Source: a candidate division Kazan bacterium GW2011_GWA1_50_15 (GTDB lineage: Bacteria > Patescibacteriota > Kazan-3B-28). Taken from it: 64,000 nucleotides of DNA. The position numbers and the translations under genes are program-made. Where the stretch lies: NCBI GenBank assembly GCA_001029795.1, contig CP011216.1, forward strand, positions 211,398 to 275,397, written 5' to 3'. Under the pieces are notes generated by a model. It was not told where the DNA came from, made no database searches, and saw only the letters and a list, made by a program, of their open reading frames with translations. Of the stretch, positions 2,886 through 13,092 are shown in pieces; the first letter of the stretch is position 1, and every line of letters begins with the position of its first letter.

Positions 2886-6158
<3,273 letters not shown>

Positions 6159-6159
<1 letters not shown>

Positions 6160-6545
6160 TGGACCTACGGCGATTGAAAAATAGTTTTGTTTACGCCATG
6201 CGCGGAATTGGTGAATTGTTTCGCGGTCAGCAGAACTTTCGCATTGAAGTTATTGGTGCGGTAGTGGTGATAGCTGTCGCTTATGCTCTGCAAGTGCGGA
6301 CGATCGAAAAAGCCATTTTAACTTTGGTTATCTTGTTGGTCTTAGCAGCCGAAGCGACTAACAGTGTGTTGGAACGGGTTTTGGATGGGGTGAACAAGGA
6401 GATTAACCCGCACTTCCGCGCGGCCAAAGATATGATGGCGGGTCTGACCCTGTTGATGGTTATTGGCGCCATCGTGGTCGGATTCATCATTTTTTATCCA
6501 TATCTGAAACCGATACTTTGGTCCCCTAGTCGGTTGGCCGGGTGA
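6159..6545 (+). CDS. dgkA: Diacylglycerol/undecaprenol kinase family membrane protein
   Basis: Three TM helices and the conserved EATNSVLERV...D motif of the DgkA family. 128 aa. Confidence 0.7.
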
Positions 6546-6585
6546 TGTGATGCAGTAAAGCGTTTGATTCCGGGCGGTTTTTTCT

Positions 6586-6927
6586 TTGTCTGAAGCTCTC
6601 TTTTTCAGCTATAATGGCAGTATGCCTCTGCCCAAAGACCAGGTAGAGTGGGTGGCGCGGCTGGCTTACATCGAGCTGACCAAGGCCGAAACATCCAAAT
6701 ATGCCGAAGAACTGTCGGCGGTTTTAGGGTATGTGGATGAGTTGCGGGAAGTAGATACCTCTACGGTTGACGGTAATCCGCCAGCTGGCGGACAAATTAC
6801 GGGTTTGAGCAATGTCTTGGCGGCTGATGCCGTGTCACCATCTGAGATCACTCGGGAGGAGTTTTTGGAGCGGGCGCCGGCATCGGAAAAAGGCTATATC
6901 AAGGTGAAGAGTGTCTTTAAGAAATGA
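6586..6927 (+). CDS. gatC: Asp/Glu-tRNA amidotransferase subunit C; the true start is probably the internal Met near 6622
   Basis: LAYIELTKAE...YVDELREVDT pattern typical of GatC. Immediately upstream of gatA. Confidence 0.8.
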   Translation: MSEALFFSYNGSMPLPKDQVEWVARLAYIELTKAETSKYAEELSAVLGYVDELREVDTSTVDGNPPAGGQITGLSNVLAADAVSPSEITREEFLERAPASEKGYIKVKSVFKK

Positions 6928-6951
6928 CAAATTAAAAATTACAAATAACAA

Positions 6952-8304
6952 ATGGAGATTAGAGAGGCGGAAAAACTGGGGATTGAGAAGGCGACGGAGG
7001 AGTCGTTGAAGATTATTAAATCCAAGAGCGAGCTCAATGCGATTTTGTCTGTCAACGACAAGCCGAAACTGTCCAAAAGCGGAAGTTTGAATGTTCCGTA
7101 TATCTGCAAAGATAATATCGTCACTAAAGAACTGCCGACTACGGCTGCCTCCAAAATCTTGGAGGGATTTGTTTCTCCGTATGAGGCAACCGTGGTGATG
7201 AAACTGCGAGAGGCCGGGGCGGTGATGGTGGGCAAATCCAATTTGGACGAGTTCGCTATGGGTTCCAGCACTGAAAATTCAGCTTTTGGTCCAACTAAGA
7301 ATCCACATGACCCAACTCGGGTGCCGGGCGGCAGTTCCGGTGGCTCAGCTGCGGCCGTAGCGGCCGGTATGGCCTCATTTGCCTTGGGCAGCGATACGGG
7401 TGGCTCCATCCGTCAGCCAGCCAGTTTTTGCGGGGTGGTGGGACTAATGCCAACCTACGGCCGAGTTAGTCGGTATGGGCTAATCGCTATGGCCAGTTCG
7501 CTGGACCGGATCGGTCCGATTACCACCAACGTGAAAGATGCGGCGAGAGTTTTGCGGGTAATCGCTGGACATGACGAACATGATTCCACCACAATGGCTA
7601 TCGAAGTGCCAGATTATGTGGCAGCGCTGGATGGCGACATTAAGGACTTAAAGATAGGTGTCCCTAAGGGATTTTTTGACGAGGGCGTAGACGCGCCAGT
7701 AGCGCAAGCAGTGCAAGCGGCGGTCGATAAATTACGACAGTTAGGAGCGATCGTGAGCGAGATAGAATTGCCACACGCAAAATTTGCTCTTGCGACTTAC
7801 TATATTCTTCAGCCCTCCGAAGTATCGGCTAATTTGGCGCGGTATGACGGCATTCGGTATGGGTTAAGTGCCTCTGATGCTAAAAATTTGTGGGAAGTTT
7901 ACGATAAATCTCGAGCTCAAGGATTTGGGGCGGAGGTGAAACGGCGGATAATGCTTGGGACTTACACGCTCTCGGCAGGTTTCCGCGATGCCTACTACGA
8001 CAAAGCCCAGCGGGTGCGGACACTCATCAAACAGGATTTTGATAAGGCGTTCAAGCAGGTGGATGTTATTATCACGCCGACTACCCCGACGGTGGCGTTC
8101 AAGCTCGGGGAGCGGGCCAAAGATCCGTTGAGTATGTACAAGGCGGACTTGCTGACCACGCCGGCCAGCTTGGCGGGTATTCCAGTTATCTCGGTACCGT
8201 GCGGAGAGGTGGAGGGACTACCGGTGGGATTACAAATTATGGGTCGGCAGTTCGACGAAAAGACCATTTTGCGGGTGGCCTACGCATATGAACAGAAGCA
8301 GTAA
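6952..8304 (+). CDS. gatA: Asp/Glu-tRNA amidotransferase subunit A
   Basis: Amidase signature [14 protein letters not shown] and Ser-cisSer-Lys triad context. 450 aa. Confidence 0.9.
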
Positions 8305-8325
8305 AAAGTTTACGTCCCTTCTCGC

Positions 8326-8360
8326 CACTATTCATAATTCACTATTCATCATTCATTCTT
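8326..8360. repeat. AT-rich inverted repeat (left arm) built from ATTCAT/CACTATTCAT units, flanking the inserted ORF 8365..8778
   Basis: Left arm cactattcataattcactattcatcattcattc; the right arm at 8780..8812 reads gaatagtgaataatgaatcatgaattagg, an imperfect reverse complement sharing attcactattc. Confidence 0.45.
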
Positions 8361-8364
8361 TCAA

Positions 8365-8778
8365 ATGATTTACGGCTGGATACTATTTATCGTAGTGGTA
8401 CTGGGCGGAGGCATGATGCTTTACGCGATGTCTAAGAAGCGGGCCTTGTCCGATATTGATCGGGACAAGGTGCGTTCCGCTTGGGCCAATATCGAACTTC
8501 TAGTGGAGGGTGATAATGACTCAGAGTGGGTCAAGGCAGTGTTTGAGGCCGATAAACTTTTGGATTTTGCATTGGTCCAGCGCCGAGTGGCGGGCGAAAG
8601 TTTGGGTGAGCGTTTAAAGAATGCTAAACCATTATTTGGCAATATCGATGCGGCTTGGCAGGCGCATAAGGTGCGCAATGAGTTAGCTCACAATATGAAC
8701 GCTCAACTGACGCGTCCACAGATCGAACGGGCGATGGATAATTTTAAGCGGGCGTTGAGGCGGTTGGGAGCGCTGTGA
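8365..8778 (+). CDS. Membrane-anchored small protein with a HEPN-like R-x4-H motif (KVRNELAH), inserted between gatA and gatB
   Basis: N-terminal TM helix (ILFIVVVLGGGMMLYAM) followed by a ~110 aa region containing RNELAH. Flanked by AT-rich inverted repeats. Confidence 0.4.
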   Translation: MIYGWILFIVVVLGGGMMLYAMSKKRALSDIDRDKVRSAWANIELLVEGDNDSEWVKAVFEADKLLDFALVQRRVAGESLGERLKNAKPLFGNIDAAWQAHKVRNELAHNMNAQLTRPQIERAMDNFKRALRRLGAL

Positions 8779-8779
8779 A

Positions 8780-8812
8780 CGAATAGTGAATAATGAATCA
8801 TGAATTAGGAAT
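8780..8812. repeat. AT-rich inverted repeat (right arm) flanking ORF 8365..8778; overlaps the gatB RBS and alternative start
   Basis: See the left arm at 8326..8360. Confidence 0.45.
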
Positions 8813-10220
8813 TATGGAAGAGGCGGACGCAAAATATGAGGCGGTGATCGGGCTGGAGATCCACGTCCAGCTAAGGACTGTGTCCAAGATGTTTTGTCGG
8901 TGCGATAACGATTCTGACAAGGCTCGGCCGAACACTAATGTCTGCCCAGTGTGTATGGGTTATCCGGGGACATTGCCGGTAACGAACGAGCAGGCCATAG
9001 ATTGGGGCATTAAAACCGCGTTGGCGCTGGGTTGCGCGGTGAATCCATTGCAGCGGTTTGATCGCAAGAACTACTTCTACCCGGACCTGCCAAAAGGTTA
9101 TCAGATTTCACAGTTCTTTTATCCGGTAGGCGAAAAGGGCAATGTGGATGTGGACTATTTGGCGTCTGATCGCAAGACCAGAAAGGAGTTTTCGGTCGGG
9201 ATAACACGGCTGCACCTTGAGGAGGATGCTGGCAAACTTATCCATACCCAGGACGGTACGCTAGTGGACTTGAACCGGTGTGGGACACCCCTGATAGAGA
9301 TCGTGACCGAGCCGGATATTAAATCGCCGGAAGAGGCCAAGGCGTTTATGCAAGAGTTGCAAAGGATGGTCAGAAGCCTCGGCGTATCGATGGCTGATAT
9401 GGAAAAAGGACACTTACGGGTGGACGCCAACGTGTCGGTCAGACCGATCGGCCAAGACGTCTTAGGAGCGAAGGTGGAGGTCAAAAACATGAACTCATTT
9501 AAGTTTATGGAAATGGCCTTGAAATTCGAGGTTGAGCGGCAAACGGCGATGCTAGAAAAAGGGGAGGTGATCGAACAAGAGACCCGGGGGTGGGATGAAA
9601 AGACCAATTCAACCGTATCTCAGCGGACTAAGGAAGGTTCGGTTGATTACCGGTATTTCCCCGAGCCGGACCTGCCCCCTATCTATATTGATCAAGATAA
9701 GATAGACGGAACTAAGAATCAATTAGCAGCGTTGCCGGCTGAGTTACGGTCGCGGGGCGAGGCGAGCGGTCTGCCGTATGCGCGGGTGGTCGAGTTGCAG
9801 GACTTGGGTAAAATGTCCGAGTTCGTGCAATTAACAACAGACTATAACGATATTGACCCGGTGCTGTTGGCTAACTGGATCACTAAAGACTTTGCCAGCA
9901 CTAAAGACCTGCGCGAGTTTGTGATAATTGTTAAATTAGAAGGTCTGTCTAACGCAGCGGCGCAAAAACTGTACGCTCTAATGCAGACCAAGAAGCTGCC
10001 GCCGCAGGATCTGGTTGGGCAGATCCAGATGGCGGATAAAGATGAACTAACCGGCCTAGTAAAACAGGTTTTGGCGGAGAACGCCGACGCAGTGGCCAAA
10101 TTTAAAGCAGGCAATACCCAGGTTTTGGCCTATCTAACGGGGCAGGTGATGAAGAAGAGTGGGGGAAGGGCAGAACCCGCTCTGGCACAGCAAATTTTGC
10201 AATCCCTCTTGACAGATTAA
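8793..10220 (+). CDS. gatB: Asp/Glu-tRNA amidotransferase subunit B; the likely true start is the ATG at 8814
   Basis: YEAVIGLEIHVQL...CRCDN...CPVCMGYPGTLP motifs classic for GatB. 475 aa. Confidence 0.9.
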   Translation: MNHELGIMEEADAKYEAVIGLEIHVQLRTVSKMFCRCDNDSDKARPNTNVCPVCMGYPGTLPVTNEQAIDWGIKTALALGCAVNPLQRFDRKNYFYPDLPKGYQISQFFYPVGEKGNVDVDYLASDRKTRKEFSVGITRLHLEEDAGKLIHTQDGTLVDLNRCGTPLIEIVTEPDIKSPEEAKAFMQELQRMVRSLGVSMADMEKGHLRVDANVSVRPIGQDVLGAKVEVKNMNSFKFMEMALKFEVERQTAMLEKGEVIEQETRGWDEKTNSTVSQRTKEGSVDYRYFPEPDLPPIYIDQDKIDGTKNQLAALPAELRSRGEASGLPYARVVELQDLGKMSEFVQLTTDYNDIDPVLLANWITKDFASTKDLREFVIIVKLEGLSNAAAQKLYALMQTKKLPPQDLVGQIQMADKDELTGLVKQVLAENADAVAKFKAGNTQVLAYLTGQVMKKSGGRAEPALAQQILQSLLTD

Positions 10221-10237
10221 AGGAAGTATGGTATAAT
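10209..10237 (+). promoter_or_regulatory. Near-consensus sigma70 promoter (TTGACA, 17 nt spacer, TATAAT with TG extension) overlapping the gatB 3' end
   Basis: TTGACAgattaaaggaagtatggTATAAT read directly. Positioned to drive ORF 10279 and the coupling-protein paralog at 10684. Confidence 0.5.
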
Positions 10238-10278
10238 GGAAGTGAGAGCTAAAAAACTTTTAAATCTGCCTTCTAGGA

Positions 10279-10665
10279 ATGGCAAACTCTAATTCTAACG
10301 GGGGTAGAAAGGTTCGAGAGATGAATACTAAACCTTTTGGGGATGGCGAGCGGATCTTATCCCAAGATTCCGTTCAGCACGAGCTACCAGAAGCGGATCA
10401 GACAGAACTAACCCGTTCGGCCGAACAGCCGATCTTAGACGATGAAGACAATGCGGATGTGGCCGTTCCGTTCGTCGACGCTGATGTTGTTGGTCAAGTT
10501 TACAGCCCGGAGGCGACAGTTAAGGCTATGGCAGCGAGTGCGATAGCTGGTAGCCGAAAGGGCGGCGATAGGGCACACGAACTGATCGAGCGTGTTTTTC
10601 AGAGTGATTTGGCTAGCGATAGCGGTGCGTTGAATCGAGTTGTGCAGGTGTTAAACCAACGTTAA
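10279..10665 (+). CDS. Hypothetical acidic protein (128 aa)
   Basis: ORF only. Acidic N-terminal half with no recognised motif. 18 nt upstream of the coupling-protein-like gene. Confidence 0.35.
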   Translation: MANSNSNGGRKVREMNTKPFGDGERILSQDSVQHELPEADQTELTRSAEQPILDDEDNADVAVPFVDADVVGQVYSPEATVKAMAASAIAGSRKGGDRAHELIERVFQSDLASDSGALNRVVQVLNQR

Positions 10666-10683
10666 CGGATAGGGGAGATACTA

Positions 10684-13092
10684 ATGATCTGGCTGGGGAT
10701 AATAATTTTTATGGTTGTGGCCGCCGTTGGCGGGTTTATTTTTGTGCGAGTCCGCAAACCCGCGGTTAAATCGGATGATGTGCGGACGCGGGTCAACTTG
10801 ATGATCACAGTCCCGCGCGGTAACAAGGAAGAGGCCCAAAAAGAGACTAAAGCGCTGGTCGCCCCAATGGAGGTGATCTTGAACAACCTAACTGGCGTAG
10901 CGGAAGTTATCGGCGAGCGCCACCTAACTTTCGAGATCGCCACGGAAGGGGAACTGATCACATTTTACGTCACCGTGCCGGACAGCCTGGTAGATTTTCT
11001 AGAGAAGCAGATTACTTCGCAGTATCCGGAAGCGGCAGTGGAGCGGGCTCCGTATCCAAACATTTTTCCCAAAGAGGGGAAGGTGGCCGCGGTTCAGCTA
11101 AAGTTACAAAAAGATAGTTGGCTGCCCCTCGTAACATATGAAAAATTGAGTGCTGACGGACTTAACGCGCTGACCAATGCTTTAAGCAAACTGGTAGATA
11201 TGCAGTCTGGCGCCGCTATCCAGATCGCATTCCGGCCAACCACCCGAACCAGCTGGCAGACTAAGGCCCACAGTATCGCTAGAAGCATGCAGCAGGGCAA
11301 GGAGGCGGGGAGCATCGGTCAAGGCGTGGTGAAGGGTCTGGGTGGGCTAGTGACCGGCCCAGAGAGTAAAGATAAGAGCAGCGAGCCGCCTAAGAAACTT
11401 ACTCAACTACAAGAAGAAGTGATCGCTCGAATAGAACAGAAAGCCTCTAAACCAGGGTTTGATGTGGTGGTCCGGTTGATAGCAGCGGCGCCGGACGAAG
11501 CTCAGGCTCGGATGCATCTGCGGTCGCTGTCAGATAGTTTTTTGCAGTTTGGCTCGCCAGAGATGAATCGATTTGTGGTCGCCACGGAGCCGGAGTCGGA
11601 AGTGGTGCGCAACTATGTTTTGCGTCAGTTTGGAGATGTGAAGGGGAGTTTCATTTTGAATGTAGAGGAACTGGCGACCGTGTTCCATATTCCCACAGCT
11701 CAGATCGATACGCCTAACGTGCGATGGCAGAAAGCCAAACGATTGCCGGCGCCGGATAATTTGCCGGTTGATGGGGTGATCTTGGGCAAGAATGTATTCC
11801 GGGGTGTGGACAAAACGGTACGGATAAAAACTGATGACCGGCGCCGGCATGTCTACACCATCGGTAAAACCGGGACAGGGAAGACTACTTGGATGCAGAA
11901 TTTAGCTCTGCAGGATATCGTTAACGGCGAGGGGGTGGCTGTCATTGATCCGCATGGCGATATGATCGAGTGGTTGCTGCAGCGCATCCCCAAAGACAGA
12001 GTGGATGACGTGATCTATTTCTATCCGCCGGACGTGGAGCGGCCATTGGGGCTGAACCTGCTGGAGGCTAAGACCGCTGCGGCCAAAGATATGGTTGTGG
12101 TTGAGATGATAGCGATATTTTATAAACTGTTTGACCCGCAGAGTTCGGGTATTGTTGGTCCGATATTTGAGCACTACATGCGCAATGCCATGTTGCTGCT
12201 GTTGGCTGATCCCGAGGATGGAGCGACTTTGATTGATATCCCGCGAGTGTTCACCGACAAGACTTTCCGGGAGCGTAAACTCCAACACGTCTCTGATCCC
12301 ACTGTGCTGCGATTCTGGAAGGAAGAGTTTGCCCAGGCGGAAAAAAGTAATCAGGTGGGGGAGTTGTTCTCCTACATTGTTTCCAAAGTAGGACGGTTTA
12401 TCAGCAACGAGATGATGCGGAATATTGTGGGCCAGACCAAGAGCGCCTTTGATATCCGTGACATTATGGATAACAAAAAGATCCTGCTGGTTAATTTGGC
12501 CAAAGGTCTGACCGGCGATATCAACAGTAATTTGTTGGGCTTTATCATTGTCTCGAAACTGCAGATGGCAGCGTTGTCTCGAGCGGATGTATCGGAGATG
12601 AACCGACCGGACTTCTACCTCTATATCGACGAGTTCCAAAACGTAACGACGGATTCTATCTCCACGATCTTGTCGGAGGCCAGAAAGTATCGTTTGAATC
12701 TAACGATCGCGCATCAGTTCGTGGCACAGCTGGAAGATAAGATCCGCGACGCGGTTTTGGGTAACGTCGGTTCGATCGTAGCGTTCAGGATCGGCGCACC
12801 GGATACGGATGTGATCGGCAAAGAGTTCGCGCCAGAGGTCAGCGAGAACGATTTGGTGAATATCGAGAGTCGCAATGCGTACGTAAAACTAATGATCGAT
12901 GGCGCGGCCAGCAAACCGTTCACTATGCAGACCTTGCCGCCGATGGGCCAAGATAATCCTAAGATCGGTTCGGCCATCAAGCAATTATCCCGCTTGAAGT
13001 TTGGGAAGGACCGTCGGATGGTAGAGCTGACCGTGGCAGAGCGGATTAAGTATGTGAAAGATATTGACCTGTCTGGGGACTTGCTGAAATAG
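10684..13092 (+). CDS. TraD/TrwB/VirD4-like type IV coupling protein-like ATPase, full length, with an N-terminal TM anchor
   Basis: TM helix at residues 1-22, Walker A GKTGTGKTT, VIDPHGDM (compare TrwB VDPNGD), Walker B LYIDEFQN, and ARKYRLNLTIAHQFVAQL. Paralog of ORF 2..2188. Confidence 0.75.
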   Translation: MIWLGIIIFMVVAAVGGFIFVRVRKPAVKSDDVRTRVNLMITVPRGNKEEAQKETKALVAPMEVILNNLTGVAEVIGERHLTFEIATEGELITFYVTVPDSLVDFLEKQITSQYPEAAVERAPYPNIFPKEGKVAAVQLKLQKDSWLPLVTYEKLSADGLNALTNALSKLVDMQSGAAIQIAFRPTTRTSWQTKAHSIARSMQQGKEAGSIGQGVVKGLGGLVTGPESKDKSSEPPKKLTQLQEEVIARIEQKASKPGFDVVVRLIAAAPDEAQARMHLRSLSDSFLQFGSPEMNRFVVATEPESEVVRNYVLRQFGDVKGSFILNVEELATVFHIPTAQIDTPNVRWQKAKRLPAPDNLPVDGVILGKNVFRGVDKTVRIKTDDRRRHVYTIGKTGTGKTTWMQNLALQDIVNGEGVAVIDPHGDMIEWLLQRIPKDRVDDVIYFYPPDVERPLGLNLLEAKTAAAKDMVVVEMIAIFYKLFDPQSSGIVGPIFEHYMRNAMLLLLADPEDGATLIDIPRVFTDKTFRERKLQHVSDPTVLRFWKEEFAQAEKSNQVGELFSYIVSKVGRFISNEMMRNIVGQTKSAFDIRDIMDNKKILLVNLAKGLTGDINSNLLGFIIVSKLQMAALSRADVSEMNRPDFYLYIDEFQNVTTDSISTILSEARKYRLNLTIAHQFVAQLEDKIRDAVLGNVGSIVAFRIGAPDTDVIGKEFAPEVSENDLVNIESRNAYVKLMIDGAASKPFTMQTLPPMGQDNPKIGSAIKQLSRLKFGKDRRMVELTVAERIKYVKDIDLSGDLLK

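Follow-up and report, generated by a model that had tools for sequence, protein, structure and literature searches.

In the candidate division Kazan bacterium GW2011_GWA1_50_15, the operon for the GatCAB tRNA-dependent amidotransferase carries an extra gene, here called X (open reading frame (ORF) 8365-8778), between gatA and gatB. Positions refer to the 64,000-nucleotide stretch of contig CP011216.1 (211,398 to 275,397) that was analyzed and that we term the window. We are confident that X is not mobile but a conserved gene of the operon whose product has a HEPN fold. Our reading as a whole is broader: X would be a vertically inherited member of a gatC-gatA-X-gatB operon, its product a membrane-bound HEPN accessory of GatCAB, and an mRNA stem would form at the start of gatB. 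Taken together, these propositions seem to us somewhat better than an even bet. GatCAB is regarded as a three-subunit enzyme and its gatA and gatB genes are adjacent in model bacteria. The window shares with the canonical locus the order gatC, gatA, gatB, apparently co-transcribed, with ligA upstream, but X parts gatA from gatB. The initial annotation had noticed this separation, together with the transmembrane (TM) helix and the RNELAH motif of the X product, and all of these are present. It went on to interpret X and the AT-rich inverted repeats around it as a small mobile or selfish insertion, and this interpretation fails for the reasons given below.

The X family is widespread in Patescibacteria. 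A homology search returned at least 321 homologues of 120-212 aa, which, where the source was named, came from Kazan, Saccharimonadales, Uhrbacteria and the "Patescibacteria group". A profile search of 1.84 billion representatives returned 3217 clusters (at 50% identity) with E <= 1e-3 and 2569 with E <= 1e-10, nearly all of them 130-165 aa long. By scanning one genome per GTDB species, the X locus was confirmed in at least 535 species genomes, and the 80 loci retained belonged to Saccharibacteria (including the oral Nanosynbacter, Nanosyncoccus and Nanoperiomorbus), Woesebacteria, Nomurabacteria, Uhrbacteria, Peribacteria, Berkelbacteria and Paceibacterota. Three loci (L051, L064 and L084) were titled Magnetospirillaceae, Gammaproteobacteria and Nanoarchaeia, respectively. 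Their X genes stand beside a gatA like that of the candidate phyla radiation (CPR), 43-55% identical to the gatA of the window, and they look like mis-binned Patescibacteria contigs in public metagenome-assembled genomes.

The position of X is kept across this range. We counted neighbours by tblastn with the GatA, GatB and GatC of the window over the fetched loci after deduplication. Of 124 evaluable loci, 106 had gatA at most 400 nt upstream of X; of 119 loci, 89 had gatB at most 200 nt downstream and 15 more had it one gene further away. All loci were retrieved via X, and the counts describe X-carrying loci rather than the frequency of gatA-X-gatB among all Patescibacteria gat operons. Within that sample, every close relative retrieved carries X. 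The normal adjacency of gatA and gatB, from which the initial annotation argued, holds for model bacteria but not for the X-carrying loci of Patescibacteria, which are mostly gatA-X-gatB or a close variant. The Kazan genome GCA_001771185, whose X is 68% identical, has the order ligA-DAGK-...-gatC-gatA-X-gatB-small ORF-ATPase and is syntenic with the window. A Saccharimonadia-type contig carries gatC-gatA-X-gatB with overlaps of 4 nt on each side of X, and a second one carries gatA-X-His_Phos_1-gatB. The His_Phos_1 gene (PF00300, E 1.5e-31; L006 5438-6022) marks a subset of Saccharimonadia-type operons, and three further loci with X-gatB gaps of about 570-590 nt (L049, L073 and L075) were grouped with them. 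It may be more than coincidence that a phosphatase stands beside a putative RNase that would leave cyclic-phosphate ends.

The sequences point the same way as the gene order. Over 66 loci, among which the mean pairwise X distance was 0.59, the Mantel-Spearman correlation was 0.71 between X and GatA, 0.74 between X and GatB and 0.90 between GatA and GatB (all p = 0.001), and therefore X diverged together with the operon. An earlier measure, identity to the window alone, gave a rho of 0.48 for GatA and of about 0 for GatB, since the window is equally far from most loci; the all-against-all comparison replaced it. The composition of X is native: its GC content and that of its third codon positions (GC3) are 0.505 and 0.565, compared to 0.525 and 0.572 in gatA and 0.514 and 0.614 in gatB. 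X thus shows both the operon adjacency and the co-divergence with gatA and gatB that an accessory subunit should show.

The repeats around X are real and non-random. Both spacers hold an array of 7-bp period with the unit ATTCAYN, and the two arrays have opposite orientations: the left one reads ATTCATA, ATTCACT, ATTCATC, ATTCATT, and the right one is that unit on the minus strand. A repeat search placed the arms at 8325-8360 and 8782-8817 (36 nt, 78% complementary), with an 18-nt core at 94%. When at most one mismatch was allowed, the dodecamer ATTCATNATTCA had six copies in the window, all of them in the two arrays, against 1.05 expected, and none of 100 shuffles reached six. The right arm, as the initial annotation stated, supplies the region of the gatB ribosome-binding site (RBS): it holds the AGGAA at 8807-8811 and both candidate gatB starts (8793 and 8814). 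The complementarity reaches beyond the coordinates of the initial annotation (8326-8812), to about 8313-8363 and 8776-8829. No direct target-site-like duplication was seen beside the arms when the sequence was inspected by eye.

These arrays are a local matter. The groundwater contig L151, whose X is 99% identical and which we refer to as the twin, differs by one base over the aligned 8280-8850 and keeps both arrays; among the 153 fetched loci, the four-unit pattern was found only there. In two relatives with 69% identity (L087 and L152), a shorter left array, CTTCATAATTCATAATTCAA (also given as TTCATAATTCATAATTCA), lies immediately 5' of the X start and overlaps the gatA stop, and the X-gatB spacer, 283 bp long, is of unrelated sequence and lacks an inverted copy of the array. 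In the Kazan relative with an X of 68% identity, neither arm is present. A metagenome scan for close relatives added one new locus, at 69% identity. We also surveyed the flanks of 119 loci with RNAduplex, pairing the 65-nt stretches around the stops of gatA and X with each other. In the window and its twin, the duplex had -38.6 kcal/mol and a z of about -4.6 (0 of 200 shuffles were as good), whereas the median z over all loci was -0.19 and z fell below -3 only in the window, the twin and one other locus. The arrays are a species-level peculiarity of the two spacers and probably arose from slippage of ATTCATA at the junction of the gatA stop and the X start.

Other structured spacers were observed in the relatives. 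The 283-bp spacer (L152 467-749; L087 about 2597-2880) is GC-rich and partly palindromic (ccgtcattccgg...ccggaatcc), compared to a spacer of 35 nt in the window, and the X-gatB junction seems to be a hot spot of spacer turnover or small insertions. In the Kazan relative (L001), a local 21-nt hairpin occurs in the gatA-X spacer (4899-4986) and two copies of the direct repeat AATCTAATCAAT occur in the X-gatB spacer (5415-5455). The spacers around X seem to be structured differently from lineage to lineage.

The initial annotation saw in all this a mobile or selfish cassette of about 490 bp, bounded by terminal inverted repeats and inserted between gatA and gatB with a HEPN toxin or defence gene. 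Some of the data could be read that way: the inverted arrays are genuine, a HEPN fold with an Rx4H motif is typical of toxins and abortive-infection proteins, and spacers in the clade do vary, as the unrelated X-gatB spacer of L152 illustrates. However, when the gatA-gatB junctions of related genomes were compared, a conserved ORF was in place without the repeats, the very outcome that the initial annotation had named as refuting the cassette. X keeps its position across the classes of the phylum, while the repeats are missing or one-sided already at 68-69% identity and flank complementarity is at background level in 116 of the 119 loci. X has diverged in step with GatA and GatB, and its GC and GC3 are native. 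Searches with the arm motif in the 64-kb window and in the 153 loci found copies only at the X locus and in the twin. A tblastn search of 50,697 phage and 72,556 plasmid records gave no match to X. Finally, a positional counterpart of X described below appears to be needed for growth and not dispensable. A cassette of this kind, or a miniature inverted-repeat transposable element, was accordingly rejected on the arm-motif searches, the relatives, the flank survey and the phage and plasmid searches, and we regard it as having next to no chance of being right.

The idea of an RNase-type toxin or defence module was borne out in part. The HEPN-type fold and the Rx4H motif are supported, but a toxin or defence role is not. 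No MNT or nucleotidyltransferase domain was called in the flanks of X, where gatA and gatB are the neighbours in the window and in most loci, and no antitoxin gene adjoins it. PADLOC models gave matches at noise level only (E 0.0013-0.022), which were inconsistent among X members, and no significant CRISPR-related match. A toxin-antitoxin or defence module was rejected on these grounds.

If the arrays are not the ends of an element, they may act in the mRNA. When 8290-8850 was folded, both the minimum free energy and the centroid structures paired the left spacer with the right one (z -3.84), and none of 100 shuffles folded as well. The best duplex joins 8313-8363 with 8776-8829 at -40.7 kcal/mol. 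In the ensemble of 8250-8900, 35 cross pairs are expected, compared to 13.8 (maximum 21) with the left spacer shuffled, and the pairing probability of the gatB AGGAA and AUG is 0.90 versus 0.61 +/- 0.11. An internal promoter or terminator was rejected as an explanation of the arrays: no terminator-like site was found in the gatA-X or X-gatB interval, and the gatA-X spacer holds a single weak promoter-like site (8309-8338, a 9-of-12 match); shuffled sequences contain such sites at least as often as the region does. Rfam gave no match at E <= 1 over 6000-10800. According to the folding model, an mRNA stem of about 42 bp would bury the RBS and start codon of gatB and also part of the initiation region of X. 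Initiation at gatB, and partly at X, would then need ribosomes that finish gatA or translate X, and the stem would take the place of the 4-nt overlaps between start and stop codons by which other lineages couple these genes. We propose only tentatively that the stem couples gatB translation to upstream ribosomes in this manner.

It is about equally likely that the arrays have no function. They would then be low-complexity spacers generated by slippage, complementary because one AT-rich unit expanded on both sides of X, and we put the chance of this a little short of even. Their restriction to one species and its 99% twin agrees with this view, as does the left unit that overlaps the gatA stop and X start in the 69% relative, which is a plausible seed for slippage. 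The lack of covariation, of an Rfam family and of any promoter- or terminator-like excess over shuffles is also in line with it. On the other hand, that the same heptamer expanded independently in opposite orientations around one gene is unlikely (0 of 100 shuffles). The pairing also runs into sequence outside the repeats, CGUCCCUUCU with GGAAGAGGCGGACG, and the predicted duplex, a strong one, lies exactly over the gatB start.

The N-terminus of the protein is a hydrophobic segment, MIYGWILFIVVVLGGGMMLYAMS, with KKR after it. The AlphaFold2 model of X, made with an alignment, reached a pLDDT of 86.5 and a pTM of 0.75 and has a TM helix at residues 3-23. A hydrophobic N-terminal 19-mer occurs in 215 of 260 full-length family members, and in 207 of these 215 lysine and arginine are richer after it than before it. 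Since the basic residues are C-terminal of the TM helix, the positive-inside rule puts the HEPN domain on the cytoplasmic side (N-out/C-in). The sequence thus predicts a short outside N-terminus, a single TM helix and a minimal cytoplasmic HEPN domain of about 105 aa. A strong internal GGAGG (8407-8416) lies 5' of Met17 and Met18 of X, and in the twin the gene is annotated as a 120-aa protein from there. We prefer the 137-aa protein with the TM helix because homologues keep the upstream hydrophobic residues and have Leu at the positions of Met17 and Met18. An internal start may nevertheless yield a soluble isoform of X.

In the predicted structure, the rest of X is an all-alpha up-and-down bundle of about 110 residues with HEPN topology, in which the motif helix spans residues 95-109. 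In the structure comparison, the listed values were 11.7 for HepT SO_3166 (5yep), 11.6 for AF0298 (2hsb), 10.6 for both a HEPN toxin (7ae2) and YutE (1ylm), 10.5 for an AMPylated HEPN toxin (8xdj) and 10.4 for TTHA0636 (1wwp). Next in the list came the C-terminal domain of kanamycin nucleotidyltransferase, Csm6, the sacsin HEPN domain and HI0074. The top Foldseek matches were those same proteins, 8xdj and 2hsb included, plus 1wty at second rank.

The motif of HEPN RNases is kept. The active site of these enzymes is defined by Rx4-6H, in which the R is followed by N, D or H, together with a conserved acidic residue further upstream, typically within Ex3[KR] (PMC3710099). X has the motif as RNELAH, with the polar N105 after the arginine. 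In a 35-sequence alignment, A62, D63, L65, L70, G81, R83, L84, W98, H101, K102, R104, N105, H109 and L134 were invariant; among 144 diverse members, D63, H101, R104 and N105 were still invariant and H109 was conserved in at least 90%. The pattern HK[VLI]RN..[AV]H was exact in 228 of 266 retrieved members, and all but three of the others had a close AH-x2-RN-x3-H variant. A candidate for the acidic residue lies in an EADKL motif in helix 2, where D63 is invariant and E61 and K64 are conserved in at least 90%, with the spacing E-x2-K instead of the E-x3-[KR] typical of HEPN.

Sequence profiles point to the same superfamily, at values below the curated cut-offs. The best Pfam match of the window X was HEPN_Swt1 (E 0.012, 16.3 bits against a cut-off of 27.5, residues 98-134). 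When the first 25 families were considered in each of the scans with 35 and 144 members, the commonest were all HEPN (Swt1, RiboL-PSP, Hypoth_Ymh, Cthe_2314 and pEK499_p136), and the best member-level matches were RiboL-PSP at 2.9e-4 and Hypoth_Ymh at 1.9e-4, which we took as sub-threshold from their E-values. DUF4145 (PF13643) appeared neither among the matches of the window X nor among the 25 families given for either scan (35 members at E <= 1, 144 members at E <= 0.1), and NCBIfam gave no match to X. The family profiles matched ribosomal protein bS20 in the PDB weakly and reproducibly (E 0.03, helices 1-2, window residues about 27-87). This match is probably compositional, resulting from a lysine-rich helical hairpin; bS20 itself is an RNA-binding helical bundle. 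Because fold and motif fit, we place X in the HEPN superfamily, and we place it in no existing HEPN family.

X differs from each known system that it resembles. The HepT/DUF86 toxins of HEPN-MNT modules (Shewanella SO_3166, 5yep; Aphanizomenon 7ae2 and 8xdj) are 7-11% identical to X. HepT is encoded next to its MNT partner MntA, whereas no MNT gene adjoins X. HepT has an AMPylated tyrosine in RX4HXY, whereas in the X family H109 is followed by N-M (window) or by E/D and a variable residue, with no conserved tyrosine at +2. Unlike HepT, X has a TM anchor, a place in a housekeeping operon, vertical inheritance and a positional counterpart required for growth. The Swt1-like (PF18731), RiboL-PSP (PF18735), pEK499_p136 (PF18736), Hypoth_Ymh (PF09509) and Cthe_2314 (PF18730) families were the only ones matched repeatedly. 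The alignments of X to them cover the RN-x3-H helix and the last helix, all below cut-off, so that X is not a member of these families as defined, and they belong to conflict systems or eukaryotic RNA surveillance, not to gat operons. The architecture of X, an N-terminal TM helix and a small HEPN-like domain, recalls Csx28, the accessory of Cas13b, whose HEPN-like domain is divergent. However, Csx28 is encoded next to cas13b, forms an antiviral membrane pore and has a degenerate HEPN motif, whereas X has an invariant motif and lies in a translation operon. Among the papers listed by our literature searches, none couples HEPN with GatCAB or the transamidosome, and the 2013 census of HEPN domains does not mention GatB or an amidotransferase (PMC3710099). 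X is an undescribed HEPN family with a conserved housekeeping context and a membrane anchor.

A positional counterpart of X has been probed by transposon insertion sequencing (Tn-seq). In the saccharibacterium Southlakia epibionticum, SEML1_0535 is a 420-bp gene for a "hypothetical protein" between GatA (SEML1_0536) and GatB (SEML1_0534), overlapping both (Wang et al. 2023, PMC10633639 Table S1), and it is flagged as "core family" and "Patescibacteria enriched" (PMC10633639). Its hidden Markov model calls were GD, GD and ES (GD, growth-defective; ES, essential), and its insertions fell from 8 in the input DNA to 5, 3 and 1; in the same experiment gatA and gatB were called GD/ES/ES and gatC GD/GD/GD (PMC10633639). 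The protein had no Pfam match and a ProtNLM guess of "DUF4145 domain-containing protein" (PMC10633639 Table S2), and DPAM puts its residues 26-135 in ECOD domain e1wtyA1 (PMC10633639). The PDB entry behind that domain, 1wty, is the second Foldseek match of the X model. SEML1_0535 is thus like X in lying between GatA and GatB, in its 139 aa and in a HEPN-type ECOD domain at 26-135. The main text of that study does not mention gat genes, HEPN or tRNA (PMC10633639). Public tables already list the X family, though without a name, as a core family enriched in Patescibacteria and as a gene scored growth-defective to essential; in the literature searched it was neither interpreted nor linked to GatCAB.

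How X might work can be proposed as follows. It would be a housekeeping accessory of the GatCAB pathway, produced together with GatCAB, which would probably dimerise as other HEPN proteins do. It would bind RNA, most plausibly tRNA(Gln), tRNA(Asn) or their mischarged forms, possibly cleave it without a metal, and hold this activity, and perhaps GatCAB too, at the membrane. We propose the partnership because the adjacency is deeply conserved and the start and stop codons overlap; that X works in the GatCAB pathway appears to us to be about an even chance. An RNase activity is proposed because the motif is invariant and there is precedent for HEPN nucleases on tRNA. HEPN-MNT toxins cleave tRNA acceptor ends. 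Among HEPN nucleases with tRNA targets, PrrC and RloC are named (PMC3710099). Even so, an active RNase X, probably acting on tRNA, seems rather unlikely to us. In a bolder version, which we consider improbable, X would be an active housekeeping RNase that polices indirect aminoacylation and forms, tethered to the membrane, a fourth component of the CPR transamidosome. In that case X could cleave unamidated Glu-tRNA(Gln) or Asp-tRNA(Asn), or trim tRNA 3' ends.

Two other explanations leave X in its operon and give it different work. X might be a non-catalytic adaptor, in which the HEPN domain binds protein, nucleotide or tRNA and tethers or organises GatCAB at the membrane without cutting RNA, as the substrate-binding domains of nucleotidyltransferases and sacsin would suggest. 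HEPN domains that only bind substrates have, however, typically lost the Rx4-6H motif (PMC3710099), whereas R104, N105, H101 and D63 are invariant in X and H109 is nearly so. This is the signature of a retained active site, and we regard the adaptor as unlikely, though a serious candidate. X might also be unlinked to GatCAB, a general membrane-associated factor of RNA processing or decay or another housekeeping protein that has been carried in a stable ligA-gatCAB cluster since the CPR ancestor. Some family members do occur in other contexts, one adjoining a phosphoglucomutase gene (L121 2411-2815) and one between thioredoxin/DsbD-like genes and a fasciclin-domain gene (L144 2351-2767), both of them divergent, and other genes such as His_Phos_1 enter the operon as well. 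Against this, the adjacency to gatA and gatB persists at very deep divergence, the start/stop overlaps indicate co-translation, and such conservation of order would be unusual for functionally unrelated genes. An unlinked X is quite unlikely in our opinion.

Our preferred reading of X as a HEPN accessory of GatCAB has to be weighed against several points. Foldseek E-values were non-significant (>=0.13), no curated HEPN model in Pfam scored above threshold for X, and profile searches of the PDB by sequence (35- and 144-sequence profiles) gave no HEPN protein. About 10% of the X family lies outside gat operons, and operon membership alone is no proof of a functional link. The Tn-seq phenotype of SEML1_0535 could be polar on gatB, and the protein is taken for a homologue of X by its position, size and fold rather than by aligning the sequences. 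The stem is without covariation support and is common only to the window and its near-identical twin, the relatives being without it.

HEPN domains are mostly known as toxins, abortive-infection and CRISPR effectors and eukaryotic RNA-surveillance nucleases. A motif-intact HEPN protein has been kept between gatA and gatB across the sampled Patescibacteria classes, and a positional counterpart seems necessary for growth in the one species amenable to genetics; this suggests an undescribed accessory step in making or policing Gln-tRNA and Asn-tRNA, or a "conflict" nuclease fold that has turned housekeeping. Should X prove to be a fourth transamidosome component and an active RNase, translation quality control would include an essential HEPN nuclease with no part in conflict, confined to about a quarter of bacterial diversity. 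The hypothesis lends itself to a direct test, since Saccharibacteria can now be transformed and the soluble domain is small. The case also carries a caution for genome scanning: inverted repeats around a small ORF in an operon may be a lineage-specific feature of spacers or mRNA and not the ends of a mobile element.

Table 1. Layout of the ligA-gat region in the window and features of gene X.
Feature	Position	Strand	Basis or remark
ligA	4183-6159		upstream of the gat genes
DAGK_prokar gene	6159-6545		between ligA and gatC
gatC	6586-6927	+	ORF list; Pfam GatC at the matching position in homologous loci; tblastn matches across loci
gatA, amidase-family subunit	6952-8304	+	ORF list; 81% identity to the Amidase-domain gene of the Kazan relative
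gatA-X spacer with left heptamer array (ATTCAYN, 4-5 copies)	8312-8364	+	5' arm of the predicted long-range mRNA stem
Gene X, 137-aa predicted single-pass membrane protein with cytoplasmic minimal HEPN domain	8365-8778	+	Patescibacteria-wide family
Codons of the N-terminal TM helix (residues 3-23, then KKR)	8371-8433	+	AlphaFold2 helix and family hydrophobicity
HEPN-fold domain (residues 30-133)	8452-8763	+	predicted helices 30-48, 52-72, 80-91, 95-109, 117-133
Codons of R104-N-E-L-A-H109, Rx4H (RN-x3-H) HEPN motif	8674-8691	+	
X end, X-gatB spacer and first gatB codons, with right (inverted) heptamer array	8775-8830	+	3' arm of the predicted stem
gatB	8814-10220 (alternative start 8793)	+	preferred ATG 8814
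Conserved 128-aa ORF	10279-10665		downstream of gatB
Type IV secretion system (T4SS)-coupling-like/DUF8128 ATPase gene	10684-13092		downstream of the 128-aa ORF

For gatB, gene callers took the in-frame ATG at 8793 as the start. We prefer the ATG at 8814, which the AGGAA precedes, because the resulting N-terminal length matches that of the Kazan homologue. Within the 3' end of gatB, a perfect match to a sigma-70-type promoter was observed at 10209-10237 (TTGACA, a 17-nt spacer, TATAAT and an extended TG), just 5' of the 128-aa ORF and the T4SS-coupling-like/DUF8128 ATPase gene.

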